A DNA stretch of 64,000 bases from Mariniphaga sp. Its GTDB lineage: Bacteria > Bacteroidota > Bacteroidia > Bacteroidales > Prolixibacteraceae. Numbering within the stretch: the stretch's first letter is position 1; each line of letters opens with the position of its first letter. Shown piece by piece: positions 36,752 to 58,383 of the stretch. The stretch covers positions 901 through 64,900 of the forward strand of contig JAAFHB010000003.1 in assembly GCA_010906965.1 (NCBI GenBank). Direction: 5' to 3'. Both the position numbers and the translations under genes were made by a program. The notes below the pieces were generated by a model, which had not been told where the DNA came from, ran no database searches, and saw only the letters and a program-made list of their open reading frames with translations.

Positions 36752-38533
36752 ATGCAATCGAATCTAAACCGAATTACGATAAAAAAAAATCTTGTTTTTT
36801 CCATGCTGCCATACATGGTGTTCTTTATAGGTTCATTTATTTATTTTGGATTTTTTGTCAGCTACATCTTCTTTTACCAGGAAAAATCGACCCTTTTTAT
36901 CTCTTCATCCGATTTTCTGATTGAAAATCTTCACCAACCGGGTGGACTACTCATATACCTTGGGAAGTTTCTTTCAACATTTTTTTATTATCCGCTTGCC
37001 GGTGCAGCAATCGTTTCGACCTGCCTCACCCTGATTGTATTAACCGTTTCAAAAATTATCGGTTTTGTCGCCGGGAAGCGTGCAATGATTGTTCCGTTTA
37101 TAATCGGAATCCTGCTGTTTTATCTTCAGGCAGATTATCGTTTTCTGCTTTTCAATACCCTTGGAGTTTTGCTTCAGCTTGCTCTCTTTTACCTGTCAAT
37201 TAGATTTATGGCATCATGGAGAATATGGATACCTGTTTTAATCACCCCGTTTTTGTATTTTGTAACAGGTAGTTTTGCATGGCTTTTCTGCGTCATGCTT
37301 ACATTCCATCTGGTTATTAATAACGAAAAGAAGGACAGGATAAAAATTATCACTTTGTGGGCACTGACTTTGATAACGATCTATATTTCAAAAGAATTTC
37401 TTTTCTTTCAAACCGAAGAAGTGCTCCTGAAGTTCCCTTTTTCGGATATAAATACCGGTGAGCAGCAGTTACTTTTTCTTGCAGGCATTCTTTCACTTCT
37501 GCCACTAATTGCCAGTATTAAGTTCAGTATGCCCGGTAAATTCAGAATTTCGGATCATGCGAAAGGACTTATCACAATATTTGTAGTGGTTATGGCTCTT
37601 TCCTCAATTGGATTTCAACGTTTTGATATTAAATTAAAGCAGTACTTCCATGTTGAAAAATTGTTTTATCAAAATAAATTTGAGGAAGTAATTGCTTATA
37701 ATATAGCAAATCCATCTTCCAATTCTTTGACGATCTTTTTGAATAATATAGCGTTATGTGAAACGGATCAACTGAACGATTTGCTCTTTCATTTCAGGCA
37801 AAGTACAGATGGTAATACGCTATTTCTGAAATGGGAGATGGAAGGAGAGGTACTTAAACGAGGTGGGTATTTTTATTACACAATTGGAATGGTGAATGAG
37901 GCACACCGCTGGGCTTTCGAGAATATGGTGATGAAGGGTCATTCACCCGAAGGGTTAAAAATGCTGATCAGGACCGAATTGATTAATGGTAATTATAAGA
38001 TGGCATCCAAGTATATTGCATTACTAAAGAATACCTTTTTCTATGCAACGGAAGCTAAAGCATTTGAAAATCTACTGTTTAATGATAAGGCCATTGAGGA
38101 AAACATGGAGTTTGGTGAAAAAAGACGAGGCCGGATTGAAACAGATTTTTTCGCAATCACTGATAATGCAAATGTCAATATTGAAAGAATACTGGCTAAT
38201 GATTCGCTGAACAGAAAGGCTTTTGAATATAAAATGGCATTTCTTCTGCTAAAAAAGGATTATCAGCATATTACAGATTTCCTTCCTCAATTTGAAAGGC
38301 TTGGATTTAATAAAATTCCCGTGCATATCGGAGAAGCAGCGATTGCATTTGCGACCTTAAACAGCAAACCTTTACCCGTGTTAAGAAGACTTTCGATCGA
38401 TCCTCAAACAGAACCCCGGTGGACGCAGTTTCTTCAGACTTTTCAGGCAAAGGGCAATAACCTTAAAGCGGCAGAGCCTGCCTTGCGAACTAATTTCAGT
38501 AATACCTTTTGGTATTACTCGTTTTATATGTAA
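36752..38533 (+). CDS. Large polytopic membrane protein with soluble helical C-terminal domain (DUF6057-like)
   Basis: 593 aa. Roughly 8-10 hydrophobic helices occupy the first ~280 aa, followed by a TPR-like helical region (GYFYYTIGMVNEAHRWAFENM...INGNYKMASKYIALL). It starts 18 nt after the previous gene. The family name is from memory. Confidence 0.6.
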   Translation: MQSNLNRITIKKNLVFSMLPYMVFFIGSFIYFGFFVSYIFFYQEKSTLFISSSDFLIENLHQPGGLLIYLGKFLSTFFYYPLAGAAIVSTCLTLIVLTVSKIIGFVAGKRAMIVPFIIGILLFYLQADYRFLLFNTLGVLLQLALFYLSIRFMASWRIWIPVLITPFLYFVTGSFAWLFCVMLTFHLVINNEKKDRIKIITLWALTLITIYISKEFLFFQTEEVLLKFPFSDINTGEQQLLFLAGILSLLPLIASIKFSMPGKFRISDHAKGLITIFVVVMALSSIGFQRFDIKLKQYFHVEKLFYQNKFEEVIAYNIANPSSNSLTIFLNNIALCETDQLNDLLFHFRQSTDGNTLFLKWEMEGEVLKRGGYFYYTIGMVNEAHRWAFENMVMKGHSPEGLKMLIRTELINGNYKMASKYIALLKNTFFYATEAKAFENLLFNDKAIEENMEFGEKRRGRIETDFFAITDNANVNIERILANDSLNRKAFEYKMAFLLLKKDYQHITDFLPQFERLGFNKIPVHIGEAAIAFATLNSKPLPVLRRLSIDPQTEPRWTQFLQTFQAKGNNLKAAEPALRTNFSNTFWYYSFYM

Positions 38534-38883: not shown

Positions 38884-40734
38884 TTAATATCCAGGATTCT
38901 GAACAAGCTGAGTATTTTTGTTCATCTCATCACGCATAATTGGGAAGAAATAGCATTTGTTATTCCATGCCCTTGCATCACCAGGTGTTTCTTTTTTGGC
39001 AAAAGTCGGAACACTCCAGGTTGAACCATCAGGTTGTCTGTAAGCGGCAACAGTTGCTGAAGATGTATTGTAACTTACATCGACAGAGGAAGTCTGTTTA
39101 TAAGCGACTGATCCAATCAACCAACGGCGAACATCCCAGAAACGTTGATCTTCGAAAGCCATTTCAACACGACGTTCGTGACGGTAAGCCTGACGTAACG
39201 CATCACCGGCTAAAGCTGGCAAATCGGGTTGACCAGCACGTTTGCGTATCATGTTAATGTAAGTGCGCGCTTCAGCATCCTGACCCAGTTCAATACAAGC
39301 CTCGGCGTAGTTTAATAGGACTTCACCATATCTGAGGTGTTTAAACGGAACATCCTGCTTTACATACTGAGGATCAACCGAAGGATCAACATATTTACGT
39401 AAATAATAACCTGTTTTACCACCGTTCCAGTCTTCAATTGGGCCTGAACGTGTATCCAAGCCAGCTTTTATCATAGTTGTACCATTATAAACGTATCCTA
39501 CCTGAATTTTGCTGAAGGGATCAATCTTTAATGCGTCGTCCGGACGTTTTCTCCATTGTACGCCTTCGTAAAGAATAGAAGCATATAAACGGGCATCGCG
39601 TTTGAGATAAGGATTCGCCTTTTGAACAGGATTAGTCCAGTCGAATTTGCTTCCGTCTTTCATTTCATAGTCGTCAACGAGATCACCAAGTGGTGTATTG
39701 TTACCCCAGTTATGGTAGCCATTAGGCCCGCAATACAATGCAGGATTGTATCCATCCCAGTCCTCATCTGTTTTTGGCGTAAAGAATTGCAAAAGGATAT
39801 CTTCGCTTGATCCTTTGGAGGTAAACAATTCAACAAAGTTTTGAGCTACAGAATCAGTTGAAGCAGGAGATGCTTTATATAAACTGTAAGTTCCCAGATC
39901 AATAACAGCTTTAGCAGCAGTCTTGGCAGCTGTCCACCGGGCAGTTGCATCGCCTCCAACGTAACCTAGTAATTCAGGTTTAGCAAATCCGGCAGTCGCA
40001 ACACTGTTTTTTGCAGAATTATGCAAATCGCTTGCGGCATAGAGTAAAACTCTCGCTTTAAATGCCAAAGCAGCCCCTTTTGTTACACGACCATTATCCG
40101 TAGCATCGGCATAACTTGCGGGTAAATTCATGGCAGCTGAATCGATCTGTCCTACTACATATTTAATGCACTCATCGTATGTATTTCTTGGAACTGTGAA
40201 CTCGTCTTTTAATCCGTAAGCTTTCGTAATAATCGGAACGCCACCATAAAGATTCGTCAGATAGAAATAGGTCCATGCACGCATAAAATAAGCTTCACCC
40301 TTTAATCTGGGCACCATGGCCTGTGGATCATCCACCACATTTTTAATATTGGCAAAGAAGATGTTAGCGCGCCGAACATTCATATACAAAGGCGCCCAAC
40401 GATAATGCAATGTATGCGGTGTAGCCCAGTCTACTTGCCAGCCATAAAGACCATCGGAGGTCATCAAGCTCTTATTGAAGTTAAGTACATCCCAGTCGGG
40501 AGTGAAAAAAGATTCGTCTGAGTAATCCGACAGGCGCTCGATAGAAAACGGGAAACCCAATGCATTACGATACATGCTGTTCACAAACGTTTCAGCAAGG
40601 GAAGGATCAGTCCAAACTGCAGTTTCGGAGTAGTCTCCAAGTGGTTGTTTATCCAAAAAATCGGCTGATTTTGTACAGGAGAACAGTGTTGAGATGATTG
40701 TTGCAATCATCAATAGATTGAATATCTTTTTCAT
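38884..40734 (-). CDS. susD: SusD/RagB-family outer-membrane glycan-binding lipoprotein
   Basis: 616 aa with lipobox LFSC. It shows the TPR-like SusD layout (WTDPSLAETFVNSMY...RAWTYFYLTNLYGGVPI...VLLNYAEACIELG) and sits directly downstream of susC. Confidence 0.95.
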   Translation of the reverse strand: MKKIFNLLMIATIISTLFSCTKSADFLDKQPLGDYSETAVWTDPSLAETFVNSMYRNALGFPFSIERLSDYSDESFFTPDWDVLNFNKSLMTSDGLYGWQVDWATPHTLHYRWAPLYMNVRRANIFFANIKNVVDDPQAMVPRLKGEAYFMRAWTYFYLTNLYGGVPIITKAYGLKDEFTVPRNTYDECIKYVVGQIDSAAMNLPASYADATDNGRVTKGAALAFKARVLLYAASDLHNSAKNSVATAGFAKPELLGYVGGDATARWTAAKTAAKAVIDLGTYSLYKASPASTDSVAQNFVELFTSKGSSEDILLQFFTPKTDEDWDGYNPALYCGPNGYHNWGNNTPLGDLVDDYEMKDGSKFDWTNPVQKANPYLKRDARLYASILYEGVQWRKRPDDALKIDPFSKIQVGYVYNGTTMIKAGLDTRSGPIEDWNGGKTGYYLRKYVDPSVDPQYVKQDVPFKHLRYGEVLLNYAEACIELGQDAEARTYINMIRKRAGQPDLPALAGDALRQAYRHERRVEMAFEDQRFWDVRRWLIGSVAYKQTSSVDVSYNTSSATVAAYRQPDGSTWSVPTFAKKETPGDARAWNNKCYFFPIMRDEMNKNTQLVQNPGY

Positions 40735-40745
40735 TTTAATTCTTT

Positions 40746-43700
40746 TTAGAATGTTAAAGTTAAACCACCGGTAATAACTCTTTGCGGAGCATATGAAGTT
40801 CCTCCTTCTACTTCAGGGTCGATCAATTTTTGTTTCGACAAGGTAAGTAAATTTGATCCGTTAACATATAAACGAAGGCCTTCAATACCAAGGGATTTAT
40901 TAACACTGGATGGTAAATTATATCCCAGTTCAAAGTTCTTCAAACGGGCATAATTCATGTTCTGAAGCCAAAAGGTATTTTGCTGACTTCTCCAGTATTC
41001 TTCGTCGCGGTTCCATGTTCTTGGGAAAGCAGAGACCGTGTTTTCAGGTGTCCAGCGATTGTCTGCATATAATTTGTAGTAGTTACCGATTTCACCCGAT
41101 TCCGGGTTGACATACTGGACAGATCCCGTTGAACCCTGGAAAAGCATAGACACATCGAACTGCTTAAATCTCAGGTTAATCGTAAGACCACCAACAAATC
41201 TTGGAAAGTTATTCTTCTCATTCATAACTTTGTCTAACCCGTCGATTACCTTATCGTCATTTACATCTTTAAAAATAACATCGCCAGGCTGTGCACCTGC
41301 CCAATGAGGATACGCAGCGACAGCTGCCGCATCTTTAAAAATACCGATTGCCTGATAATACAAGGATGAACCCATTGGTCTTCCTGTAGATTGTTGATAA
41401 TCAGGAATACCTGGTGTTTCATCCCAGAATACAATTTTGTTTTTCGAATAACTACCATTTACAGAAACATCATATTGAAAATCGCCCGACTTGCCGTTGT
41501 AACCTATTGTCGCTTCAATTCCGCGGTTTTGAACCTTTCCGATATTTTCAGGAGGCAAAGTAAGACCTGTAGAACTTGGAATTGAGGCATTCCGTTTAAT
41601 AAGGATCTGAGAACGGATATTGTTGAAATAATCAGCCGAAATTGACAATTTACTATTAAACAAAAGCGCGTCAAATCCAATGTTGGCCTGATTGGCTACT
41701 TCCCATGTAACATTCGGGTTTGGTATTTTTGTCTCATTTAAGAGCTTGGAATCTGTTGAGCCAAATACATAAGTTTTGCCACTAAGATATCCGTAAGTTG
41801 CGAGATATTGATACTCATCAATCCGGTCATTCCCGGTTTGACCCCACGATCCACGAATTTTGAAGTCATTAATAAGGGAAATATTTTCTTTCCAGAAAGC
41901 TTCTTCCGAAATACGCCATCCGGCAGAAACGCCCGGGAAGAAACCAAATTGCTTTGTTGTCGGGAATTTATAAGAACCATCGTATCTCCAAACAAATTCG
42001 ACCATATACTTCTTGCTTAGGTCGTAATTAACGCGGCCAAAATAACTCAGAATAGCACTCTGGCTTGCCGAACCACTATTTGACATATATTGATCCTCAG
42101 CACCGGCAAATAATTGATCAACAGCAGGAGAGATGTAATTTTTTCGGAATGCGTTGAAAATATCTCTTTGTCCGTTTCGTCTTTCTGTACCTGCCATTAC
42201 TTTAATGGTGTGTTTCTCTGCAAATGTTTTATCATAAGAAGCATAGGCATTTATAGTAATTGTCTGTCCGTCAGCCATGTCTTCTGATAGCTGTGGAGCG
42301 TCCAGACCTCTTTTCCCTTTCGTAGTAACATGGTCAGCATTTCCATCCCATGTGTAAAGGTACCAGGGAGTTTCGAATTTTTTATGAAACTGAAATGCTT
42401 TGTCAAAAGAGGCGTTAGCGGTAACTGATAGGCCACTTACCCATGGAATCACAATAACGGTGCGTAAATTACTTTCGAGAATATATCTTTTATCCATGTC
42501 ATATCCTGTAGCTGCAGTTGATGTAACGGCTGGGTTATCACCATATTCAATATCTGGACCCGGATCACCATTGGGCCAGTAAGCAGGCATATTTGGTTTA
42601 CCACGCATCAGCATTCTGAAAATAGAACTGGCTGAACGCGTAGGATAATTCCTCAATTCTTCTCTTCCTGAAACATCAAACGCAATATTGATGTATTTAT
42701 TTATCTTGCCATCGATGTTAGTACGGAAATTGTATTGTTTATAATTGGTTGCACTGTTTTTATAATTGGCATCCTGGTACTGTGCACCTAAAGCAATGAA
42801 ATATTTCATATTTTCAGTTCCACCCGAAATAGAAGCATTTTGCTGATTTTGGCTCGACCAAGGTTTAAATACTTCATTAAACCAATTGGTATTTGGATGT
42901 CCCCAGGGGTCTGATCCATCGGTGTATTTCGTCAGATCGTCCGCTGAATACTTTTGAAAACGACCAAGTGATGGGGTCTTATAATAGGCAATTTCGTTCA
43001 GCATGGTAGAATACTGGGTCGCGTCAGCCATTTCAGGTACACGTGTAGGTTGGTTGAAACCCGTGTTCATGTTTATTGTAACTTTGGGTTTTCCAAGTGC
43101 ACCACGTTTGGTGGTTATCAAAATTACACCATTGGCAGCTTCGGCGCCATAAATAGCGGCTGAAGCATCTTTTAAAATGGTAACACTTTCGATATCCGCC
43201 GAGTTGATACGTTCCATACTACGGTTTGCAATACCATCAACTACAATCAGTGGATTGTTATCTCCCAGTGTATTACCGCCCCGAATTCGCAGCGTAGAGC
43301 CATCATTACCAGGTTCACCGCTTCTTGTAACAGAAGTCAAACCAGGCAGACGACCTACAAGGCTATTGGTTAAATTGACTGCGGGCGATTTCTGTATTTC
43401 AGCACCTTTGGCTGAAACGGCTGAACCAGTTGCGGTTACTTTCTTCTGTGTGCCATAACCAACAACAATAACCTCTTCCACACCCAAAATCTCTGTTTTC
43501 ATCGTCACATCGATCACCTTTTTCTGTCCGATCGCGACTTCCTGTGGTATCATACCCACAAATGAAAAGATCAAAAGTTGTAAATTTGCAGGAACATTAA
43601 GACTGTACTTTCCATCCATGTCAGTAACAGTTCCGGTAGTAGTTCCTTTTACAACAACTGAAACCCCGGGAACAGAGGCTCCACTTTCGTCAGAAACTTT

Positions 43701-43823
43701 TCCGGATACTAACTTTTGTTGGGCAAAGGCCATACCGGTCATGAAAAACATAAGAAGTACCAGAGATAGTAACTTTCTGGTAAATTTCCCCTTAGGTAGA
43801 AAAATCTGATTTTTTAGTTTCAT
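40746..43823 (-). CDS. susC: SusC/RagA-family TonB-dependent transporter
   Basis: 1025 aa with a signal peptide. It has a carboxypeptidase-regulatory-like domain (VSGKVSDESGASVPGVSVVVKGTTTGTVTDMDGKYSL), a plug (NPLIVVDGI) and a C-terminal beta-barrel ending GGLTLTF. No STN/anti-sigma domain is present. Confidence 0.95.
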   Translation of the reverse strand: MKLKNQIFLPKGKFTRKLLSLVLLMFFMTGMAFAQQKLVSGKVSDESGASVPGVSVVVKGTTTGTVTDMDGKYSLNVPANLQLLIFSFVGMIPQEVAIGQKKVIDVTMKTEILGVEEVIVVGYGTQKKVTATGSAVSAKGAEIQKSPAVNLTNSLVGRLPGLTSVTRSGEPGNDGSTLRIRGGNTLGDNNPLIVVDGIANRSMERINSADIESVTILKDASAAIYGAEAANGVILITTKRGALGKPKVTINMNTGFNQPTRVPEMADATQYSTMLNEIAYYKTPSLGRFQKYSADDLTKYTDGSDPWGHPNTNWFNEVFKPWSSQNQQNASISGGTENMKYFIALGAQYQDANYKNSATNYKQYNFRTNIDGKINKYINIAFDVSGREELRNYPTRSASSIFRMLMRGKPNMPAYWPNGDPGPDIEYGDNPAVTSTAATGYDMDKRYILESNLRTVIVIPWVSGLSVTANASFDKAFQFHKKFETPWYLYTWDGNADHVTTKGKRGLDAPQLSEDMADGQTITINAYASYDKTFAEKHTIKVMAGTERRNGQRDIFNAFRKNYISPAVDQLFAGAEDQYMSNSGSASQSAILSYFGRVNYDLSKKYMVEFVWRYDGSYKFPTTKQFGFFPGVSAGWRISEEAFWKENISLINDFKIRGSWGQTGNDRIDEYQYLATYGYLSGKTYVFGSTDSKLLNETKIPNPNVTWEVANQANIGFDALLFNSKLSISADYFNNIRSQILIKRNASIPSSTGLTLPPENIGKVQNRGIEATIGYNGKSGDFQYDVSVNGSYSKNKIVFWDETPGIPDYQQSTGRPMGSSLYYQAIGIFKDAAAVAAYPHWAGAQPGDVIFKDVNDDKVIDGLDKVMNEKNNFPRFVGGLTINLRFKQFDVSMLFQGSTGSVQYVNPESGEIGNYYKLYADNRWTPENTVSAFPRTWNRDEEYWRSQQNTFWLQNMNYARLKNFELGYNLPSSVNKSLGIEGLRLYVNGSNLLTLSKQKLIDPEVEGGTSYAPQRVITGGLTLTF

Positions 43824-46654: not shown

Positions 46655-49600
46655 TTAAGGTTTCAGAGGCACCGCAGGTTTTTTAATTCCAGGAAAGTCC
46701 GGAATTACTTCTGTCTTATTTTCTTTTACGTCCTTTTGTTGCTCAGGCGTTTTAGTGTACATTTTTAGTACACCACTGGCATGTCGGTAATAATGTCCCC
46801 TGAGATCTTTGGAATAATTGGTCAGAATTTCCTTCCCCAATCCGTTGACATCACCACAACGGAACAGTGCCCTGGCAAGGATCAATTCGCGTAGTGAATT
46901 ATTTCGTGTACTCGTGTCGGTATCGCCGGCAGGAGTCAATCGTTTAGCTGTCTGAATATCCGGCATCGAATGACCCGTTATGCCAGGAAGTTGCAGCAGA
47001 TCATAAAGAATTAAAGCGCCCCTGTTATCTCCGATGGTTTCGAGTGCCATCGCAACTGCCCTGAAATGTGAAAATTCGCTTGTAGTGGTTAGTCTCTTAG
47101 ACATCTTCTCAAGAACTGGAATTGCCTCTGCTCTTTTGGTTCTTCCAAGTGCAATGATTAATCCATCAAGATAGCTGATGCTTTTGCCAAATTGTCCCAT
47201 TCCGGTGTAATTCCAGCCTCCATCCCAGTTGCCGGCATTTTCAACGGCCTCCTGCAATACTTCTCCGCCGGCCGCATTTCCCAGCATACCGAGAATTCTG
47301 GCATAGGTCAACTGATCTTCGGGAGTTTTGGTTTGATTAAATGCGTCAACCATCAATGGCATTGAACGCGTTTTGTCCCAAAGCAGAATTTCGAGCCCAT
47401 CGAGGTTATGGGTAACCGTGGAGGCTGCCTGCCTGATCATTTCATCTGTCGGCGGAAAATTATCCTTGTCGGTAAGCACCGACTCCGGAAGACTTTCAAT
47501 CTTAACAAGTTCCTTTTGGAGTGATGGCAGATCGATATTGCGGATCATCTGATTGTTTTTCGCTGCTATTGCTGCAGCCCATCCTACCGCATAGCCCTGA
47601 TTTTGCAGACAGGGTTGCATCCTGATCACAGGCATTGCATCGCGGTCGGCACTTGCCCCGAGACCAGTCACTGCAATTCCTTCGATTCCCTTTGGTAAAA
47701 GGGCGCGGAAAGGGACATACGCTGTTACGTCGGCTCCGCTGTGTTCGGGTGGCTTCAGATAAAAGAACGAATCTTCCGTGAAACCATGGGTGTCGAATGA
47801 ACTTACATGTATCGAGATAACATCGGGATAGGTCCGGCCATTGTAAATATCCAGTGCTGATATTGTGAAATCCCCAACCATCCGGCGACGTTCGCGTGTT
47901 TGCGATAATTTTCCGATGTCGTACTGGTCCGAAAATTTATCTTTAGCAACAATAAAGGTCCACCAAATGTCGAGCATATCGGTGTCATCGGTAAAAGTCC
48001 AGTCGCTGTTGTTGTAAAAATCGTTTGGGTTTTTAAACGGCATTCCGGCTCCCTGAACGGCCACTGAATTGCCATCTGTGTATATAAATCCTGCTCCTGC
48101 GGCAATTGCAATATCAGAACTTCCTGACGAATCGATCACCGTATGCGCCAGAATTACCCCTTTACCAAATGGAGTTGCTACAATAACCCCTTTCACTTTT
48201 CCCTTGTCAATATAAGCGCCACAACCTAATACGCCGAACCAGATTTCTCCACCGGCATTTCGAATTTCGCGTCTGAAATATTCTGTTTTCCAGTCGAATA
48301 CCCATTCGTCGAGCCTGTTCTTTTGTCGCACATTTCCTTCGCCAATCGCTTTTACACCGTTATCAACCACATTTGTATATCCTTTCCGGTAACCGTGATA
48401 ATAGCGACCTACCATACCCAAAGTTCCGATTCCGCCTAATCCATGCAAATACTCAATTACCATCGTTTTTGCGCCATGGCGTGCAGCACCTACCGCTGCG
48501 GGGGCACCGGCAGTTCCTCCTCCCATTACAACAACATCGTAACGACCAAGAACCGGAAGAGTCGTCGCTTCTGACAGGATCGTACCCTGGCTTAATGAAG
48601 GACGGATTCCGGCAAGTAACTCACCAACATCACCTTTTACGGAATTCGAATGCCGGTTTCCTTTAATCTTCACGGAATTTGACATCGAAGTTGCAGACGC
48701 CATATTTGCTGCTTCTTTTCCGATTCTTTCCCCGATTCGGATCATTCCTCCGGGTTGCAAAAGGTTTGCAGCGATGGTCCGTGAAACATCAGCCATTCCG
48801 TTTAATAAAAAGATGCGACTGACTTTTTGTGGTTGAAAGGGGGTAAGAACAATCTCTTCACTATTGGTCGCTGCTTTGTCAAAGCTACTTTTTCCGATGA
48901 TATGATCGGGTGGAACCTGGAAAAGCAGATCTCCCGATTCAACCTGATTGGAATCCCAGGTGAGATCACGGGCTATTTGCTCTGCATTCGCGAACGACTC
49001 GTAAGCGCCATTTTTCATTTCAATATCCAGCGAATATTCAATGGCTTTATACTCTTTCTCTTTCACAACCACGGGTTGAGGCATCAGCTGTGAAGATCCG
49101 TTTGCAAGCTTTTTCTCATTATTTCCCAATACAATGAACCGGAAATTCTGTTTGCCGGCAGGATAGGGCGTAAACGAGGCCGAAGTAAGGCGTGAAACCA
49201 TTGCCCTCGGCGTTGCATCGATAATGATCTTCGCCTTTATAGCCTGTCTTCCGGAACGGTTGGCGATCACAACACCGGCAGGATTACCCTGGGCATCTGT
49301 CAGCAGATCGGTGACGTAACTTGAGAATAGAAATTCTATTTTATTGTTGATTAATTCATTATCGAGTGTCTGTTTAAACTTTAACGGAACCGGAAGTCCG
49401 TTGCTGAAGAGTTTTTTGCCAAGTGAAGTTTTTAAAGCCTCCTTATGAATGTTCCAGTAACGATAAGTACCACAGACATCTTCACCAAGATAGGTCTCCT
49501 GCGCAACAAGAAAAACCTTTGCTCCGCTTTGTGCTGCACTTACAGCAGCTGCTACTGCTGCCGTTGATCCACCAACCACGACCACATCAACAGTATATGC

Positions 49601-49744
49601 CACAGGTATTTTGCGTTCAGACTGGTAACAAAATTTAGCTGTAATGTTTTCGTTAGCAGGAGCTTCGGGGAAAGCAAACAGATTGCCGGTAGCGAGAACC
49701 GCTGAACCTGTTGCCGTTGATAGAATAAAATCTCTTCGTTTCAT
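46655..49744 (-). CDS. Tat-signal, tandem FAD-dependent-oxidoreductase-domain protein with C-terminal HEAT-like repeats
   Basis: 1029 aa. MKRRDFILSTATGSAVLATG is a twin-arginine signal. Two dinucleotide-binding motifs are present: VDVVVVGGSTAAVAAAVSAAQSGAKV (aa ~52-76) and YDVVVMGGGTAGAPAAVGAARHGAKT (aa ~402-427). The C-terminal ~250 aa is helical and repeat-like (ARILGMLGN..., AIPVLEKMSKRL, AVAMALETIGDNRG). Confidence 0.8.
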   Translation of the reverse strand: MKRRDFILSTATGSAVLATGNLFAFPEAPANENITAKFCYQSERKIPVAYTVDVVVVGGSTAAVAAAVSAAQSGAKVFLVAQETYLGEDVCGTYRYWNIHKEALKTSLGKKLFSNGLPVPLKFKQTLDNELINNKIEFLFSSYVTDLLTDAQGNPAGVVIANRSGRQAIKAKIIIDATPRAMVSRLTSASFTPYPAGKQNFRFIVLGNNEKKLANGSSQLMPQPVVVKEKEYKAIEYSLDIEMKNGAYESFANAEQIARDLTWDSNQVESGDLLFQVPPDHIIGKSSFDKAATNSEEIVLTPFQPQKVSRIFLLNGMADVSRTIAANLLQPGGMIRIGERIGKEAANMASATSMSNSVKIKGNRHSNSVKGDVGELLAGIRPSLSQGTILSEATTLPVLGRYDVVVMGGGTAGAPAAVGAARHGAKTMVIEYLHGLGGIGTLGMVGRYYHGYRKGYTNVVDNGVKAIGEGNVRQKNRLDEWVFDWKTEYFRREIRNAGGEIWFGVLGCGAYIDKGKVKGVIVATPFGKGVILAHTVIDSSGSSDIAIAAGAGFIYTDGNSVAVQGAGMPFKNPNDFYNNSDWTFTDDTDMLDIWWTFIVAKDKFSDQYDIGKLSQTRERRRMVGDFTISALDIYNGRTYPDVISIHVSSFDTHGFTEDSFFYLKPPEHSGADVTAYVPFRALLPKGIEGIAVTGLGASADRDAMPVIRMQPCLQNQGYAVGWAAAIAAKNNQMIRNIDLPSLQKELVKIESLPESVLTDKDNFPPTDEMIRQAASTVTHNLDGLEILLWDKTRSMPLMVDAFNQTKTPEDQLTYARILGMLGNAAGGEVLQEAVENAGNWDGGWNYTGMGQFGKSISYLDGLIIALGRTKRAEAIPVLEKMSKRLTTTSEFSHFRAVAMALETIGDNRGALILYDLLQLPGITGHSMPDIQTAKRLTPAGDTDTSTRNNSLRELILARALFRCGDVNGLGKEILTNYSKDLRGHYYRHASGVLKMYTKTPEQQKDVKENKTEVIPDFPGIKKPAVPLKP

Positions 49745-49829: not shown

Positions 49830-51275
49830 TCATGAAATAAGTTTATCAGGTTGTTCTCTTAATTTTCTCCGGTAAAGTTCGAATACTGTAAATGCTACGA
49901 TAGCGACAATAAAGCCGATTGAAAGTGAAATATTGTAGGACAAGTTAAACCCTTCGGGAGCAAAAAATAAATAGGAAGTTATTACGATGGTCATGAAAAG
50001 GGCAGGAAGGAGCGTTACAAAGTGGGTCTTATGCTCTCTGACCAGATAAACGGTTATCGTCCATAGTACTACGGCTGCAAGGGTTTGGTTCGACCAGGCA
50101 AAATACCGCCAAATGATGGCGAAATCAACTTGTGTGAGGACATATCCAGCCATAAAAAGCGGAATACTGATGAGCAATCTGTTTTTTATCGGGCCTTGCT
50201 TAAAATTCAGAAAATCAGCAACAATCAGACGGGCGCTCCTAAATGCGGTATCGCCTGAAGTGATAGGTGCTGCAACTACGCCAAGTAAAGCCAATGCTCC
50301 GCCAACACGTCCCAGCAACGAGTTTGATATTTCGTTGACTAAAAAAGCAGCGTTCCCTTTTTCTGCCAGCATCACTTCATTTAACTGACCAACACCGCCA
50401 TAAAATGCCATTCCGATAGCAGCCCAAATCAGCGCGACAATACCCTCTGTAATCATCGCACCATAAAATACGCGCCGCCCCAGTTTTTCATTTGTAATAC
50501 ATCGGGCCATCAACGGTGATTGTGTGGCGTGAAATCCTGATATAGCACCACAAGCGATCGTAATGAACATCATTGGGAAGATGGGAAATTGTTCGGGCTG
50601 ATCGTGAAAGTTCGTCAGGTTACTCATCGTCAGTTCAGGAATATGGTAGCCTCCGACAAACAGCGCGGTAATTAATCCTATCGCCATAAACAGTAGGGCA
50701 AAGCCAAAAACCGGATAAATCTTACCGATGATTTTATCAATCGGAAGCAGTGTGGCTAATACATAATAAAAGAAGACCACCCATACCCAAAAATTCATTG
50801 TAAGGTAATCAGGCGTCAGACTGGCAAGGATTTTTGCGGGTCCCATAATAAAAACAGCACCTACAATAATCATTAAAATCACCGTAAATCCTCTCATTAT
50901 CTGTTTGGTATTTCTGCCAAGATAAATACCGACAATTTCGGTGATGCTTAAGCCGTTGTGTTTAATTGAGAGCATCCCGGAAAAATAATCATGAACGCCA
51001 CCAGCAAATATTGACCCTAATACAATCCATAAAAAGGCAACTGGCCCCCACATGGCACCTGCAACTGCGCCAAAAATAGGACCCAATCCTGCAATATTAA
51101 GAAACTGAATCAAAAATACCCTCCACCAAGGCATTGGTACATAGTCGACACCATCAGTCAGTTTGTAGGCTGGAGTCTCACGTTTCGGGTCAATACCGGC
51201 AATTTTTTCCAGGTACCTTGAATAAAAGAAATACCCCAGGAGAAGTACAAGGATTGATAAAGTAAATGTAATCAT
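49830..51275 (-). CDS. cstA: CstA-family (carbon starvation protein A; peptide/pyruvate) transporter
   Basis: 481 aa, polytopic. It carries the conserved N-terminal CstA block FLNIAGLGPIFGAVAGAMWGPVAFLWIVLGSIFAGGVHDY. Confidence 0.85.
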   Translation of the reverse strand: MITFTLSILVLLLGYFFYSRYLEKIAGIDPKRETPAYKLTDGVDYVPMPWWRVFLIQFLNIAGLGPIFGAVAGAMWGPVAFLWIVLGSIFAGGVHDYFSGMLSIKHNGLSITEIVGIYLGRNTKQIMRGFTVILMIIVGAVFIMGPAKILASLTPDYLTMNFWVWVVFFYYVLATLLPIDKIIGKIYPVFGFALLFMAIGLITALFVGGYHIPELTMSNLTNFHDQPEQFPIFPMMFITIACGAISGFHATQSPLMARCITNEKLGRRVFYGAMITEGIVALIWAAIGMAFYGGVGQLNEVMLAEKGNAAFLVNEISNSLLGRVGGALALLGVVAAPITSGDTAFRSARLIVADFLNFKQGPIKNRLLISIPLFMAGYVLTQVDFAIIWRYFAWSNQTLAAVVLWTITVYLVREHKTHFVTLLPALFMTIVITSYLFFAPEGFNLSYNISLSIGFIVAIVAFTVFELYRRKLREQPDKLIS

Positions 51276-51482
51276 ATTGTGAAAGTTAGCTGATTAATTT
51301 TTATGTAACTGTGGATAAGTTTATGCTTTGAAACGGTTTGATAATTGATTAAAAGCGGATGGCAGCTGGATTGTGGCATATTGACTGATTTGTATTTTAA
51401 TTTATATAATAAAATTTTTTATTTGGTATATTTTAATTAAGTCTATTTAAGCTGCTATATTTTAATTGATTACAGTTATATC

Positions 51483-51631
51483 GCCACGAAGTGGCTTGTT
51501 TCCTTGATTACGATTATTGCTACAAAGATTCAGCTGCTACGCAGCCATTTTCGATGCAATGTAGTTGCAATCCCGCATATACGGGATTGTAGATTAATGT
51601 ATTGTGTCTATTTCGAAAGCAACGTAGTTGC
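51483..51631. repeat. Cluster of REP-like short stem-loops, same family as 25955-26041
   Basis: The hairpins are GCCAC-GAA-GTGGC (51483-51495), GCTGC-TAC-GCAGC (51533-51545, preceded by CTACAAAGAT), CAATCCCG-catata-CGGGATTG (51568-51589) and GCAAC-GTA-GTTGC (51619-51631). Confidence 0.6.
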
Positions 51632-51688
51632 GACATTTTCATTTTTCAAATTTTTACCAGACAACATTGAATTTTTTTATTTTCCTTG

Positions 51689-52828
51689 TTATTGTATTTT
51701 CTTTTGATACCGATTGAGTTGTTTTTTAAGATCGGATGATTGAACGGGTAAATTTAGCAGAAAATAGTAAACCCTGTTTGCTACATTTTCATTTTTACTG
51801 TCCAGCAGTGTGCAGAGTTTAAGTTGATCCTCGTAATCAAAATTGTATCGTTTTTCAAGTAACAAAAGTATCACATTCACAAGGTAATAATTGTCATTGT
51901 TGATCAGTTTCATTAGCTCTTGCGCAACTGGTCTGGTTAATTTTTCAGATTCGCGGATATATTCAATGGCCAGGTTTTTGATTCTGAATTCTTCGCTTTC
52001 GAGCAATTTAATTACCTCTATTTGCAAATGCTCCTTGTCTATTAGGCTGCAATGTTTTAAGAATTTCAGGGCTTGCCTGGAAGATTGGTAATTTTCACTG
52101 TGCAGCATGGTAATGGCTGGTTCAATGAATTGTCTGTTGTCCATGTCGGATTCGCTGATCCAACGAAGTGCAATTATTTGATTGTATGGATCCATATTCT
52201 GTAAGGTATTGGTCAGTAATTGATTTGATAGCAAGTGTTTTTTTGTGTAATTCATTATGCTATCCCTGGTAACGCCATAGGTAAGGTGCCAAATCGTGTA
52301 GGAAGTATAGGCTGCTTCGGGTACGATCCATGGCGAGAGATCGGGAAGGGTAGCTCCTGTAATTCCATCGGATTTTTTAACGACTTGTTTTTTAGGATGA
52401 ATTTCTTCCGGCGAGTAGAATCCGAGTTGAGAGGTGGAATCGGAAAGTATCTCACTAAGTCTTTTATAGTCGCTTTCCAAAAATGGGACATGTTCCCTTT
52501 TGGTTAGCTCTTCACCCGGAGGAAGTGAATATCCAATGTATTTTCCGGTCACTTCCCAATACAGCGTGATATCAACAGGGCGACACAGGCTATCGATGCA
52601 AACGGCAGTATAAATATTCCGGCTGAATGCCTCCGGCTGGCTTGTGGCTGAGAAATAGATTGTCAGTGTATCATCAGGGACAGAGTCCATGAAATTGATC
52701 AATACTTTGGTCGTTTTAGCAGCTGCGTCAGGACGGAAGGGTGCATCTATAAACATCCGGCCCTTTTCGTCAGGCCGGATGCTTCCCATTAAAAGCAGGG
52801 CAAAAAATGTAATAAAGCCTTTGCTCAT
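51689..52828 (-). CDS. Secreted hypothetical protein: FMN_bind-like N-domain (DGITGAT motif) plus HEAT-like helical repeats
   Basis: 379 aa with signal-like FITFFALLLMGS. DGITGAT at aa 154-160 (nt 52349-52369) fits the [S/T]GA[S/T] flavinylation motif. The C-terminal half is repetitive and helical. Confidence 0.55.
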   Translation of the reverse strand: MSKGFITFFALLLMGSIRPDEKGRMFIDAPFRPDAAAKTTKVLINFMDSVPDDTLTIYFSATSQPEAFSRNIYTAVCIDSLCRPVDITLYWEVTGKYIGYSLPPGEELTKREHVPFLESDYKRLSEILSDSTSQLGFYSPEEIHPKKQVVKKSDGITGATLPDLSPWIVPEAAYTSYTIWHLTYGVTRDSIMNYTKKHLLSNQLLTNTLQNMDPYNQIIALRWISESDMDNRQFIEPAITMLHSENYQSSRQALKFLKHCSLIDKEHLQIEVIKLLESEEFRIKNLAIEYIRESEKLTRPVAQELMKLINNDNYYLVNVILLLLEKRYNFDYEDQLKLCTLLDSKNENVANRVYYFLLNLPVQSSDLKKQLNRYQKKIQ

Positions 52829-54085: not shown

Positions 54086-55948
54086 CTATTCGGAAGTTTT
54101 CAGCAACGTTCCACCTTCATTGTACTTTTGAGTATTCGGAATATCTAATTTTCCTGTACCTTTTGCCATTAATATTTGTAGTTCAGAAAGATACGATTCA
54201 TAAACCTTTCGGGGAAGTGCACCATGATTTTTACAAACTGCCGCAGCCATACCAACGACTTCACCCATCATCCCCGTTGTACGCATAACCCTTACTGTAC
54301 CAAGTGCAACGTGCGTTACACTGATATTTCTGCCTGCCATAAACAGATTGTTGACATTGCGGGAATAGAGACAACGATAAGGAATCGCGTAAGGGTAAAT
54401 CGGTTTGTGTTTTGCAATAGAGAGAAACTCCTCCCCTGGAAAATACTGCGTATTTTTTGGATCCGGATAGTGCAGGTCAACTGTCCAGGAAGTGGGAGCA
54501 GTGCCATCAGGATATTTTATCTGATCTGTTAAGTCCTGTTCTTTAAGCACTAAATCCCCGGTCAATCGGCGCGATTCGCGCTTTCCGGCAACATAGGCCA
54601 CCCAACTTAGTTTGCTATTTTTGAAATTCTGATTTTCAGTAAATCTGTTTTTCAAATAGGACCAGTTAGAGAATACAACCATCATCCCGTAATCACGGAT
54701 CCGTTCAAAATCATTTACCTGATCATAATTCATTCCGGTTTCCCATTGCCAGTCCCCCTTTTTTATAGCCTGAGCATTTTTCTCATTGAAATTCAAACCC
54801 CAGGGTATAACAGGGAAAAATTCGGATCCGGAGGATTCCTCCGAATACCATTGCACAGATGATCCCATGGTCATTTTGTCTTTTACTTTGGGTGCTGTTG
54901 GTTCACCATATTCACTTTGACCTTCACGTCCCATCATAAAATCGGCCCCGGCCAGTGCTCCAATTGTTGCGTCACCTGTACAATCGGCGAAGAGCGGCGA
55001 TTCAAACCGAAGTTCTTTGGAATTTTCGATGTTTACGGCACGTACTGATTTGATAAGTTCCCCTTCTTTCTCAACACTGTTTGCACGATAATTTAGAAAA
55101 AGCGTAATGTTTTTCTCCGATGTAACAGCATCCAGTTTTTTCTGATCTTCGTAAAACGAGGCCGGTTGTGCATTGCCACCCTTGTCTGGTCCAATCTCGT
55201 TGACCAGATTTCCCAGGGCTGGGTACGGATTCAGGTTGATCCGACCACCCAGATGAACACGTACTTCGGAACTGTTATTTCCGCCCAGAACCGGACGATC
55301 CTGAATCAGTGCCACTTTCACACCAAGACGGGCAGCTGAAAGTGCTGCACAGGTTCCTGCCATTCCTCCACCAATAACTACGAGATCAAATTTTCCGGCC
55401 GATTCAGGTACTTCAGGCAAACCCAATGCTTTTTTTCTGAAAGCAGCCAGTTTTTCGGGTGAGTTTTCAGGGCGAAAGGTTGGATCACTGCTAAACAGAA
55501 TTGCATCGCAACGACCGTTAAAACCCGTCAGATCGTGCAGCGAAATTGTCGATTCTCCGGCTTTAATCTTTACTGAACCACCATTTTGCCAGTTCCATTC
55601 TGTATCCTGGGTTCCAAAAATGGCTTTCAGTGGTTTGTTATTAATGATGACATTAAATCTTCCGGGCGTCTCTTTGTCAGACCAATAGCCTACCCAGTTG
55701 CGTGTTCTTACAAAAATATTATAGGTCCCGGTTTTCGGAAAAATTACTTTGGTTGATGCGTCTGCGACGGGTTTCCCAAGTCCGTGTGCCATCAGGAAAG
55801 GCGATCCCATCTGATCCATAAATTGTTGGTCGACGACCCACCCGCCTTTGTTCGTGAAACTCTCGGCTTCGACCAAAACCTGTGAAAACAGCGTAGATGG
55901 CAGGCTGCAGATGAATGTAAAAAATAGTAGTATCCTTAAATTCTTCAT
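54086..55948 (-). CDS. Secreted FAD-dependent oxidoreductase (PF12831-like) with N-terminal CBM-like beta-sandwich
   Basis: The ORF track starts at 55996; ATG 55948 provides the signal peptide MKNLRILLFFTFICSLPSTLFSQ. An N-terminal ~170-aa beta-rich domain (VEAESFTNKGGWVVDQQFMDQMGSPFL) is followed by FDLVVIGGGMAGTCAALSAARLGVKVALI. Confidence 0.8.
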   Translation of the reverse strand: MKNLRILLFFTFICSLPSTLFSQVLVEAESFTNKGGWVVDQQFMDQMGSPFLMAHGLGKPVADASTKVIFPKTGTYNIFVRTRNWVGYWSDKETPGRFNVIINNKPLKAIFGTQDTEWNWQNGGSVKIKAGESTISLHDLTGFNGRCDAILFSSDPTFRPENSPEKLAAFRKKALGLPEVPESAGKFDLVVIGGGMAGTCAALSAARLGVKVALIQDRPVLGGNNSSEVRVHLGGRINLNPYPALGNLVNEIGPDKGGNAQPASFYEDQKKLDAVTSEKNITLFLNYRANSVEKEGELIKSVRAVNIENSKELRFESPLFADCTGDATIGALAGADFMMGREGQSEYGEPTAPKVKDKMTMGSSVQWYSEESSGSEFFPVIPWGLNFNEKNAQAIKKGDWQWETGMNYDQVNDFERIRDYGMMVVFSNWSYLKNRFTENQNFKNSKLSWVAYVAGKRESRRLTGDLVLKEQDLTDQIKYPDGTAPTSWTVDLHYPDPKNTQYFPGEEFLSIAKHKPIYPYAIPYRCLYSRNVNNLFMAGRNISVTHVALGTVRVMRTTGMMGEVVGMAAAVCKNHGALPRKVYESYLSELQILMAKGTGKLDIPNTQKYNEGGTLLKTSE

Positions 55949-55953
55949 ATAAT

Positions 55954-58383
55954 TTATTCTGTAACGTTGATGGTAACATTCGTTTCTTTTAGCCATGGGG
56001 CTGCAAATTTCAGGGTTACTGTACCAGTTTTGCCTGTTGCCTGCACATAAGCCAACAGCCGTCCATGATATACACGCTGTACATTATCGTTGTAATCGCC
56101 CATGTCTGAATTGTTGCTTGCTTCGAGGCCCAAAAGAGTAGCAGGTCCTTCGATTGTGCACGTAACTTCGTCTTCTGAAATCATAACCGGAACCCCCTTT
56201 TCGTCAACCACCTGCAACACAACCTGGGCAAGTCCCCGGTTTTTGCTGACAGATGAAACATCCGACTGAGCTGTTAAAGCATATGGCCTGTCAGACGATT
56301 GCAATGCGTAATTACAGATTGCTTTTTCATCCTTATCCAATCCGATAACTTCCAGTTTTCCTTCATGGAAAGGAATATCCCAATAGATGATACCCTTGAT
56401 GTCGTCATATTTCTTAACTTCTCCAACCTGCATGCCGTTTAACATCAGTCGGGATTTTGCCGTATTGGTATAACAAACAACCCGAATCATCTCTCCCTCT
56501 TTGTAGTTCCAGACAGGCCATGCGTCCATTGAAAGATGATTGTTTTTCGCAGGCTGATGGTAGGTTCCGATATAGGTAACTGGTTTTACGCTCCACAATG
56601 CCTGGCGGAAATGACCCCTTGGTTTAATAAATCCCCCAAAATCGAGGAATCCTGAATAGAATCCCCTTGATGGCCAGGCGCCCGATTCACCCAGGTAATC
56701 AATACCTGTCCAGATAAACTGACCGAAAATATATTCTGTATCCCTCACAACCTTCCACGACTCCATGCTGTGTCCGTTTTCACTTCCAAATATGACCCGT
56801 TTCGGATATTTTGCATGATCCTGGGCATAACGATCTTCCGTATAATTATATCCTGTGATGTCAAGCGTTCCGGGATAATCTGTTTCGTTCGACATGACGA
56901 CTCCTGCCAATCCGGCAGTAACCGGGCGGGATGAATCAAGACTACGAACAATGGCGGCCAGTCGTTTGGCGATACCACCTAACCGTTCGGCTTTGGGGTT
57001 ATTGGGCAAATAGCCTCCCTGCACTGGCTGGTTGATATTGGCATGATCGAGTACCGGATGTGTATACGGGTCATTGGGATAATCGACCTCGTTACCAATG
57101 CTCCACATAATTATTGAAGCATGGTTCCGGTCGCGCCGGACCATATCCGCAAGATCCCTGTCGCTCCATTCATTAAAATACGAAGCTGCTCCCTGAAATC
57201 CGGGTATGCCTTTATTCCATCCTTTTATCCATTTTTTCTTTGCAAATTCCCATTCGTCAAAAGCTTCATCCATAACAAGAATGCCTAATTCATCACACAA
57301 TTCGTACACATCGGAGGCTTGCGGATTATGGGTCATTCGGATGCCATTGCAACCCATATCTTTCAGCGTAAGCAACCTTCTTCTCCAGACTTCGCGGGGA
57401 ACAGCCGAGCCTAAACATCCGGCATCGTGATGAATACATACACCTTTCACCTTTGTCCATACACCATTTATTGCAAGACCTTTATCTGGATCGAAAGTCA
57501 ATTCACGCAACCCAAGTTGCTGCTCATTCTGGTCAATTACTTTCCCATTTTGCTGAACGACTGTCTTTAATGTATAGAGATTAGGCTGTTCCAACGACCA
57601 GCGTTTAGGCGAATGAACAGTGATTGTTTGTTTGATTATTCCTTTAAGTTTAGCGCCAACCTCCAGATTTTTTGACCCTTTGGCGACCACTTTCCCTGAT
57701 GCAGGATCAATGATCTCGTGTAAGATTTTGACAGTAGCACCAGATGCAAGACTATTGTTTATCGTAGTTTCGACTGAAACCTCCGCCTTTTTATCTGTAA
57801 TGTTGCTGGCGTTGAAGTAAACTCCCCATAAATCGATATGCACCGGAGAAGAATAAACAAGATAAGCATCTCTGTAAATTCCCGATCCGGAATACCAGCG
57901 GGAGTCAGCATCCAAAGAATGATCGACGCGTACTGATATCAGATTCTCCTCCCCATATTTTAAAAAGGGTGTCAGATCGTACATAAACGCGATGTAGCCA
58001 TTTGGACGTTTACCAACCGATTGCACATTGATGAAGACTTCACTTTGGTTATAAACGCCTTCGAAATAGATAAAGACACTATTCCCTTTTTCAGTCGCGG
58101 GTACTGTGAAAGTTTTTCGGTACCAGGCAATTCCACCCGGAAGATATCCGGTCGCGCTGGCTTTGTCGGGACTATAAACCCCTTCCACGCTCCAGTCGTG
58201 AGGCAGATTGAGTTGTCTCCACTTCGAATCGTCTAAGCCAGTCTGAGCCCCATCTTTTAAATCAGACAGGTTAAACCGCCAACCTTCGTTAAAAAGGACT
58301 GCTTTGCCAAACTGTGGCTTTGCCTGAAGTGCACTTCCCATGAGAAAAAATATGGCAGCGCATAAAATACCTTTTAGTTTCAT
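55954..58383 (-). CDS. GH2-family glycoside hydrolase (beta-galactosidase-like)
   Basis: 809 aa with a signal peptide. It has the sugar-binding domain motif NLPHDWSVEG, the acid/base region MWSIGNEV and C-terminal Ig-like domains. Confidence 0.9.
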   Translation of the reverse strand: MKLKGILCAAIFFLMGSALQAKPQFGKAVLFNEGWRFNLSDLKDGAQTGLDDSKWRQLNLPHDWSVEGVYSPDKASATGYLPGGIAWYRKTFTVPATEKGNSVFIYFEGVYNQSEVFINVQSVGKRPNGYIAFMYDLTPFLKYGEENLISVRVDHSLDADSRWYSGSGIYRDAYLVYSSPVHIDLWGVYFNASNITDKKAEVSVETTINNSLASGATVKILHEIIDPASGKVVAKGSKNLEVGAKLKGIIKQTITVHSPKRWSLEQPNLYTLKTVVQQNGKVIDQNEQQLGLRELTFDPDKGLAINGVWTKVKGVCIHHDAGCLGSAVPREVWRRRLLTLKDMGCNGIRMTHNPQASDVYELCDELGILVMDEAFDEWEFAKKKWIKGWNKGIPGFQGAASYFNEWSDRDLADMVRRDRNHASIIMWSIGNEVDYPNDPYTHPVLDHANINQPVQGGYLPNNPKAERLGGIAKRLAAIVRSLDSSRPVTAGLAGVVMSNETDYPGTLDITGYNYTEDRYAQDHAKYPKRVIFGSENGHSMESWKVVRDTEYIFGQFIWTGIDYLGESGAWPSRGFYSGFLDFGGFIKPRGHFRQALWSVKPVTYIGTYHQPAKNNHLSMDAWPVWNYKEGEMIRVVCYTNTAKSRLMLNGMQVGEVKKYDDIKGIIYWDIPFHEGKLEVIGLDKDEKAICNYALQSSDRPYALTAQSDVSSVSKNRGLAQVVLQVVDEKGVPVMISEDEVTCTIEGPATLLGLEASNNSDMGDYNDNVQRVYHGRLLAYVQATGKTGTVTLKFAAPWLKETNVTINVTE

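Follow-up and report, generated by a model that had tools for sequence, protein, structure and literature searches.

A tandem PF12831 flavoprotein with a HEAT-like tail and a candidate flavinylated neighbor in a Mariniphaga glycan-uptake cluster

What would an exported protein with two predicted flavin-binding domains do among the genes of a glycan-uptake cluster? This question is raised by a locus of Mariniphaga sp. (Bacteroidota, Prolixibacteraceae) that we analyzed within a 64,000-nucleotide (nt) stretch of contig JAAFHB010000003.1 (assembly GCA_010906965.1, contig positions 901 to 64,900), hereafter called the window; positions below are those of the window, and genes and protein features lie on its minus strand unless stated otherwise. 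The whole open reading frame (ORF), 46655..49744, begins with ATG and encodes an exported tandem PF12831 flavoprotein of 1029 amino acids (aa) with a helical-repeat tail; a preliminary description, made from the letters of the sequence, had not given its strand. From its domain content, the 1029-aa protein appears to be a PF12831 member of an exported flavoenzyme type, with a tandem fold and a solenoid tail, in a populous and uncharacterized family. The most interesting outcome of the analysis lies just outside 46655-49744, where a 379-aa protein is a candidate flavinylated carrier that would tie the flavoproteins of polysaccharide utilization loci (PULs) to periplasmic redox chemistry.

The whole 1029-aa protein matched Pfam PF12831 (FAD_oxidored) with 208.9 bits (gathering cut-off, 27), and each half also matched when scanned alone: aa 53-192 aligned with profile positions 1-158 at 64.3 bits, and aa 403-746 aligned with the entire profile (positions 1-416) at 159.4 bits. 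We therefore describe a first PF12831-like domain at aa 44-350 (48695..49615; delimited by Pfam and hhalign), a diverged full copy of the fold without the RExRR and DxH cap motifs, and a second, complete PF12831 domain at aa 395-748 (47501..48562; delimited by Pfam and invariant glycines), the presumed catalytic copy. Both dinucleotide-binding motifs stand exactly where the preliminary description had placed two Rossmann motifs: the variant GGSTAA at aa 58-63 (49556..49573), within VVVVGGSTAA (aa 54-63), and GGGTAG, a canonical GxGxxG, at aa 408-413 (48506..48523), within VVVMGGGTAG (aa 404-413). Compared directly by BLASTP, the halves were 27% identical over 164 aa (E 0.008). For a profile comparison, 82 diverse homologs were aligned with the query and the alignment was cut at query aa 36-392 and 393-760; hhalign then matched the first-half profile to the second-half profile with a probability of 99.5% (E 4.5e-22) over 294 columns, reaching, in each half, from the initial beta-strand to the final long helix. 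Since the match extends over these 294 columns, the N-terminal half has the two-domain flavoprotein fold of the second half in full, though diverged, and not an unrelated fold, the finding that the preliminary description had named as fatal to its own reading. The internal duplication that it had proposed is thus borne out at the profile level, and both flavoprotein domains arose in this way.

The two copies differ in what they have kept. Across the diverse homologs G408, G410, G413, and R619 of the second domain are invariant, and R617, D651, and H653 are conserved in at least 90%; this copy retains the canonical GxGxxG, an LGG turn, T-R-E-R-R-R-x-x-G-D (aa 616-625), which includes the PF12831 hallmark motif RERRR (aa 617-621; 47882..47896), and the partner motif F-D-T-H-G (FDTHG, aa 650-654). 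Cap motifs of the RERRR and FDTHG type also occur in single-domain paralogs of 636 aa and ~565 aa. In the first domain G58 is invariant and G59 is conserved in at least 90% of the diverse homologs, and the copy retains G58, G59, G74, G87, D89, and a C-terminal G-x-helix skeleton, with the cap-motif positions empty. GGSTAA had been called slightly degenerate; it is indeed a variant of the canonical motif, but YGGTSAG or YGGTSAA is found in the small PF12831 paralogs of related loci, and GGSTAA is therefore a family variant rather than a product of simple decay. With its RERRR and DxH motifs, the second domain would be the catalytic flavin site, and the first, a dinucleotide-binding skeleton without the cap, may be either a second flavin site or a substrate-recognition module. 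Since the first copy has no PF12831 cap motifs, the earlier suggestion that one copy is possibly non-catalytic may be right.

The C-terminal helical-repeat (HEAT-like) domain, aa 754-990 (46775..47485), was delimited from the helices of an AlphaFold2 (AF2) model and from HEAT_2 matches in homologs. In the 1029-aa protein itself both HEAT_2 (PF13646; 21.0 bits, cut-off 27.7) and HEAT_PBS (PF03130; 19.3 bits, cut-off 20.9) scored below threshold at aa ~860-920, and among 48 diverse homologs HEAT_2 matched 18 (best E 1e-6) and HEAT_PBS matched 4; the tail can thus be called HEAT-like at the level of the family, below threshold in this member. The AF2 model, which was built on 40 homologs and, like the other AF2 model used here, contains no cofactor, reached a mean predicted local distance difference test score (pLDDT) of 73.5 and a predicted template modeling score (pTM) of 0.77. 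It has two Rossmann-type sheets and 14 short helices at aa 739-990, mostly with high pLDDT, an all-helical tail in agreement with the C-terminal HEAT-like repeats that had been recognized from the sequence. Foldseek comparison of the full-length model with the PDB returned class A monooxygenases, flavocytochrome c3, and pyranose 2-oxidase, with TM scores of 0.27-0.47 against the target; pyranose 2-oxidase was a weak generic fold match (TM about 0.3), and as judged from the model these are generic two-domain flavoproteins only. PDB sequence and profile searches matched only the dinucleotide motif of the protein.

The family is large. A word-indexed search returned 1950 relatives of the 1029-aa protein; the best 120 of these, 62-94% identical to the query, are 994-1052 aa long bar one sequence of 878 aa, have Mariniphaga, Draconibacterium, and Maribellus as named sources and otherwise Bacteroidota, and are annotated only as "FAD-dependent oxidoreductase" or similar. 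An exhaustive search of 1.84 billion representatives (clusters at 50% identity) gave 7255 matches, 781 of them at E<=1e-30, and most of the top 150 clusters covered query aa ~45-995 at 35-50% identity. The architecture had been thought unusual; these numbers do not make it rare, and because most of the top 150 clusters are full length the three-part arrangement is old, common, and conserved across a large family. No characterized member was found among the 781 clusters at E<=1e-30, and the literature yielded no function for PF12831/FAD_oxidored, for FAD oxidoreductases in PULs, or for co-occurrence with CstA. One family member contains a dockerin. A sister subgroup of ~1130-1160 aa, which includes a protein encoded in the compared loci L085 and L086 (locus positions 10001-13480; P0127), carries an insert of ~150 aa near query aa 117, an F5/8-type-C (discoidin) domain within the first flavoprotein domain; its leaders are of the Sec type, and in L085 and L086 a DUF5696/DUF6259 protein adjoins the family member.

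The leader of the 1029-aa protein (aa 1-25, 49670..49744; MKRRDFILSTATGSAVLATGNLFAF) is a signal peptide of the twin-arginine translocation (Tat) type, without a lipobox cysteine. RRDFI (aa 3-7, within K-R-R-D-F-I-L, aa 2-8) and a weakly hydrophobic core (hydropathy about 0.9-1.5) agree with an S/T-R-R-x-F-L-K-like Tat motif, and among close homologs R3 and F6 are invariant and R4 is conserved in at least 90%. Of 116 close homologs (the Prolixibacteraceae clade) 114 have an RR motif, versus 12 of the 72 distant representatives that have a leader, the remaining 60 having Sec-type signal peptides. The twin-arginine signal read earlier from MKRRDFIL therefore stands, and it is specific to the close Prolixibacteraceae clade. 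In this clade the protein would bind FAD in the cytoplasm and be exported folded via Tat, as had been argued from cofactor loading; as a rule for the family that argument does not hold, because distant members mostly have Sec-type leaders. Such Sec-exported relatives could load FAD outside the cytoplasm, since the flavin transferase ApbE itself uses FAD there (PMC8238504). No tat genes were identified among the scanned window ORFs of at least 150 aa. RR leaders also occur on other proteins (of the Gfo/Idh/MocA type) in related genomes.

The 379-aa neighbor (51689..52828) is an exported protein with a hydrophobic N-terminal leader, an N-terminal beta domain, a flavinylation-type motif, and a HEAT-like solenoid, and is a candidate carrier of flavin mononucleotide (FMN). 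Its AF2 model (pLDDT 86.5) is beta-rich at aa 24-111 and, after a low-confidence loop, forms an alpha-solenoid from aa 170. The top Foldseek matches were alphaRep HEAT-like and designed armadillo proteins, a result dominated by the solenoid half, and HEAT_2 matched 12 of 33 homologs; the solenoid model and these matches uphold the HEAT-like character ascribed to this neighbor before. A HEAT domain shared between this solenoid and the tail of the 1029-aa protein was considered and rejected: BLASTP gave E 0.025 over 62 aa, and hhalign, with a probability of 0.1%, detected no homology.

In the low-confidence loop between the beta domain and the solenoid sits DGITGAT (aa 154-160; 52349..52369), an ApbE-type [S/T]GA[S/T] sequence with an aspartate at -6; [S/T]GA[S/T] is the target motif of ApbE (PMC8238504). 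D154, A159, and T160 do not vary among homologs with identities as low as 23%, and G158 is conserved in at least 90%; DAVSGAT, DAVSSAT, and DAITSAT occur as variants. We take the aspartate at -6 to resemble that of NqrC/RnfG-type sites. The motif pattern was found in 14 of 16 family ORFs in addition to the window protein, with one other match in 720,861 aa of locus ORFs, and its chance expectation in the 379-aa protein is about 5e-4. In motif and in location the 379-aa protein thus resembles ApbE substrates, which makes it a candidate flavinylated electron carrier. Membership in FMN_bind (PF04205) was tried and dropped, as it was unsupported by Pfam, by NCBIfam, where the protein had no match, and by the PDB profile search, where there was no match to NqrC or RnfG. 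Also conserved in the N-terminal domain are a C-x4-C pair (C77 and C82), nearly invariant, and K110, H113, and F116, all invariant; these might form a disulfide or a metal or cofactor site.

A link to apbE itself was seen in one lineage. In the compared loci L087, L089, and L092 the order is 1029-aa homolog, apbE, 379-aa homolog, all on one strand and with gaps of 1-17 nt or none, the identity of ApbE being given by Pfam PF02424 and by NCBIfam. The 1029-aa homologs of L087 and L089 are 37% and 35% identical to the window protein, respectively, and their 379-aa homologs are 26-27% identical. A PF06439 gene (3-keto-disaccharide hydrolase) comes next after the triplet in L092. In L090 a 379-aa homolog with DGITGAT has as neighbors a PF12831 gene, a gene of faint PF06439/lyase-like character, one for a xylose-isomerase-like TIM barrel, and CstA; in L091 the 379-aa homolog stands alone, with no apbE clustering. 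The large flavoproteins of L087 (locus positions 5465-8995) and L092 (locus positions 3439-6999) have a C-terminal extension with an immunoglobulin-like (Ig-like) segment holding KDSGAT, and in L087 this segment is followed by an EF-hand-like DTNSDGKVTEEEY. The SGAT of the extension may serve as a second flavinylation site or else occur in the Ig domain by chance.

Which of the surrounding genes are likely to act with these two proteins was judged from the loci of 1029-aa homologs fetched for comparison, about 82-85 in number. In the window the minus-strand order is GH2, the 636-aa PF12831 protein, GH76, the 379-aa protein, a CstA-like transporter, the 1029-aa gene, GH36, SusC, and SusD. The SusC-like and SusD-like outer-membrane pair (38884..43823, identified from the translations; SusC 40746-43823, SusD 38884-40734) is downstream of the 1029-aa gene on the same strand, and the same association in 22-26 related loci agrees with the earlier view of the protein as a PUL component. 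The most conserved neighbor is the short CstA-family membrane transporter (481 aa, 49830..51275; Pfam CstA, 220 bits), whose counterparts of ~480 aa are present in 39-40 of ~85 loci and adjacent to the 1029-aa homolog in 39 of 82. PF12831 lipoproteins of ~565 aa occur in 35 of the ~85 loci, often in two or three copies, SusD in 22-26, SusC in 24-25, the 636-aa type of PF12831 protein in 11-12, and an 844-aa protein in 6-7. The glycosidase types of the window are scarce across 82 loci (GH36 in 1, GH76 in 0, GH2 in 7). The conserved partners are accordingly the CstA-like transporter, SusC/D, further PF12831 proteins, and the 379-aa protein, not the glycosidases. In Maribellus comscasis the core consists of SusC, SusD, three PF12831 genes, CstA, and the 1029-aa homolog, with no glycosidase; in other lineages sulfatase, glycosidase (GH2 and GH141), and DUF1080 genes neighbor the 1029-aa homologs. 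A second full-length paralog, 39-41% identical to the 1029-aa protein, is adjacent in eight loci.

Against the NCBIfam model "pyruvate/proton symporter CstA" the transporter scored 111.7 bits (equivalog cut-off, 1188). The idea that the ~1000-aa family corresponds to the pyruvated-mannose-specific xanthan lyase XalA of Paenibacillus alginolyticus, which would have accounted for a pyruvate-type transporter, was rejected, as XalA belongs to PL8 (PMC10881899; PMC5673643). Upstream of the CstA gene and after the 379-aa gene is a 413-nt non-coding gap (51276-51688), the sole long gap in the cluster; Rfam had no match anywhere in the 64-kb window, the gap included, and a promoter and terminator scan did no better than shuffles. 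The 636-aa single-domain PF12831 protein (54086..55996; Pfam, 246.9 bits at aa 204-607) has a leader of the Sec type, and its N-terminal domain spans ~160 aa. The listed ATG of its gene overlaps the GH2 gene by 43 nt, and an ordinary Sec leader results when the protein is read from a later Met (MKNLRILLFF...). Pfam has no match to the N-terminal domain, VLVEAESFTNKGGWVVDQQF..., which looks like a beta-sandwich sugar-binding module.

Read from this context, the system may be a pair: a periplasmic FAD dehydrogenase, whose substrates are imported glycosides, and its FMN relay partner. To this composite we would give somewhat less than an even chance. An oligosaccharide or glycoside would enter through SusC/D, and the 1029-aa enzyme would oxidize a secondary hydroxyl in the periplasm to yield a keto-glycoside, whose glycosidic bond would then be labile to hydrolysis or elimination; electrons would pass from FAD to an FMN attached by ApbE to Thr160 of the 379-aa protein and from there to some membrane acceptor, and the CstA-like transporter would import a product. 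Oxidation of glycosides is proposed because of the carbohydrate context (SusC/D, the F5/8-type-C insert, the dockerin, and the sulfatases and glycosidases); redox chemistry is proposed because of the D..[ST]xAT motif in the 379-aa family and the gene order of target homolog, apbE, and 379-aa gene. The keto-glycoside direction follows the PF06439 gene in L092, the genes of L090, and a DUF1080 precedent in Bacteroides thetaiotaomicron, where a DUF1080 protein hydrolyzes 3-keto-trehalose downstream of a Tat-exported periplasmic oxidoreductase (PMC8121099). A bolder version is tentative and in our judgment rather improbable as a whole: glycan-uptake clusters might hold an undescribed periplasmic flavin relay, in which a tandem-FAD dehydrogenase and a small HEAT-repeat protein, the N-terminal domain of the latter representing a new, fourth class of ApbE substrate after FMN_bind, DUF2271, and DUF3570, would couple glycoside oxidation to the respiratory chain.

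Several observations weigh against this relay. Scans of the window found no membrane redox partner, no apbE, and no DUF1080 gene, and BLASTP of the fetched Prolixibacteraceae loci likewise found no apbE, DUF1080, or xylose-isomerase-like genes near the homologs. The loci L087, L089, and L092 represent one lineage (ApbE 69-79% identical), in which the 379-aa homolog has lost the glycine of the motif, which reads DG[VK]S[RK]AT; the large flavoprotein of this lineage carries its own KDSGAT in the extra C-terminal domain, and that sequence, not the 379-aa homolog, could be the ApbE target. Homologs of the 379-aa protein are found in only a subset of the loci (13-16 of ~85), the protein had no Pfam match at E<=10, and none of its 33 homologs matched FMN_bind, DUF2271, or DUF3570 at E<=1. 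The Sec-type leaders of most distant family members mean that flavin loading before export is not universal. The AF2 model of the 1029-aa protein is of low confidence in the cap segment (aa 556-619), PDB sequence, profile, and Foldseek searches found no solved structure closer than generic two-domain flavoproteins, and the searchable literature held no substrate or biochemistry for any family member.

Electrons could also flow the other way, in a periplasmic reductase, from the membrane quinol pool through a flavinylated 379-aa protein to FAD and on to an imported substrate (e.g., a sugar derivative with a C=C or keto group), as in flavinylated fumarate and urocanate reductases. An anaerobic or facultative way of life is common among the Prolixibacteraceae, and the best sequence and fold matches of the 1029-aa protein include flavocytochrome c3 fumarate reductase; however, the fumarate reductase matches are confined to the dinucleotide motif (aa 49-114), the PF00890 match covers positions 1-36 of 414 only, and no membrane electron-input module was found adjoining the gene in the compared loci. 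The characterized extracytosolic flavoenzymes that combine an ApbE-flavinylated site and a two-domain FAD fold reduce fumarate or urocanate (PMC8238504), which speaks for a reductase, but the PUL context and the DUF1080 neighbor fit oxidation better, and we regard reduction as unlikely.

A substrate other than a carbohydrate would change the picture differently: a periplasmic flavin oxidase or deaminase acting on peptides, amino acids, or a small nitrogenous or keto-acid compound could release a keto acid such as pyruvate for import by the CstA-family transporter. Annotations of the CstA family, such as that of NCBIfam, name pyruvate or peptide transport, and both the scarcity of the window glycosidases among conserved partners and the Maribellus module without any glycosidase would suit such a substrate; yet the CstA match lies far under the equivalog cut-off, no amine-oxidase or DAO family match extends beyond the Rossmann motif, and the discoidin insertion in the sister subgroup and the sulfatase, GH2, GH141, and DUF1080 genes by homologs in other lineages point to carbohydrates, so that we consider this distinctly unlikely. 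Quite doubtful, finally, is a role for the fold without redox turnover, in which the protein would bind or cleave glycans as a hydrolase or lyase, with the flavin structural or absent and the first domain a pseudo-enzyme scaffold. Sec or lipoprotein leaders on most distant members and on all small PF12831 paralogs seen would imply unfolded, cofactor-free delivery, and the first domain has no canonical second glycine; but the canonical GxGxxG of the second domain is invariant, ApbE's own need for FAD outside the cytoplasm means that members exported by Sec could be loaded with flavin there, the Tat leader of the close clade fits cofactor loading before export, and the link to apbE and to a protein with a flavinylation motif argues for electron transfer.

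Glycoside oxidation with an FMN relay also frames the comparison with known systems. Single-domain PF12831 PUL proteins (the 636-aa neighbor and the ~565-aa lipoproteins) share with the 1029-aa protein the Pfam family, the RExRR and DxH motifs, occurrence in the same gene clusters, and export; they differ in having one domain, Sec or lipoprotein leaders rather than Tat, and no HEAT-like tail, and as they are themselves uncharacterized they offer no function for it. The likeness proposed to glycoside 3-dehydrogenase systems (FAD-dependent G3DH, the LacABC and ThuAB type, and the pair of BT2158, a Gfo/Idh/MocA protein, and BT2157, a DUF1080 protein) is that of a periplasmic, cofactor-loaded oxidoreductase acting on imported glycosides. 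A Tat leader is common to BT2158, which works with the hydrolase BT2157 (PMC8121099), and the 1029-aa protein, and a DUF1080 gene lies by the homolog in L092. Unlike these systems, the 1029-aa protein has neither a GMC (PF00732/PF05199) nor a Gfo/Idh/MocA (PF01408) domain, and the window has no DUF1080 gene; the likeness would lie in the context and the proposed chemistry and not in family membership. Flavinylated fumarate and urocanate reductases and other ApbE-dependent modules resemble the system in their exported two-domain FAD fold and putative ApbE site, with apbE clustered in one lineage. They differ in that here the putative FMN site is on a separate protein without a recognizable FMN_bind, DUF2271, or DUF3570 domain and in that the FAD domains, duplicated in tandem, belong to PF12831 and not to PF00890 (FAD_binding_2), for which no full-length match including the capping domain was found in the 1029-aa protein. 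PF12831 goes unmentioned in the text, and in part of the supplements, of the eLife flavinylation survey (PMC8238504).

Further features of the window lie outside this set of genes. The 844-aa exported protein (59897-62431) has no Pfam, NCBIfam, or PDB match and contains an internal repeat (a second BLASTP segment, 29% identity); a 485-aa single-module relative stands beside its homolog in L083, and the protein may represent an undescribed glycan-active family. Between the GH2 and 844-aa genes, on the same strand, an AAA_14/DUF4143 ATPase gene (58395-59615) interrupts an otherwise glycan-related run; similar genes are present in only three related loci. At the edge of the window is a further SusD-family gene (62535-63917), which points to another SusC/D pair lying upstream of the flavoprotein cluster. 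A glycan-related set on the plus strand (26681-38533) encodes GH127, a GH51-type arabinofuranosidase, a GH20-like protein, an HGSNAT/DUF5009 acetyltransferase-like membrane protein, a PD40 beta-propeller, and DUF6057, with an Acyl_transf_3 gene on the minus strand in its midst.

Few unexplained genes are as common in the glycan-uptake loci of Bacteroidota, Planctomycetota, and Verrucomicrobiota as those for PF12831 "FAD-dependent oxidoreductases", and our searches found neither a substrate nor a structure for PF12831 PUL proteins. The present analysis offers several handles on the family: a defined architecture in which the fold is duplicated and one copy has the cap motifs, a conserved core set of SusC/D, small PF12831 proteins, a CstA-like transporter, and the large protein, and a candidate electron partner with a flavin-attachment motif, whose link to apbE was seen in one lineage. 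Should the redox reading be true, the list of ApbE substrate domains would be incomplete, and periplasmic oxidative pre-activation of glycosides would be far wider than the few NAD- or GMC-dependent cases. Were the flavin relay also true, Bacteroidota, Verrucomicrobiota, and Planctomycetota would have a flavin-based, oxidative route of glycan breakdown alongside their hydrolases and lyases.

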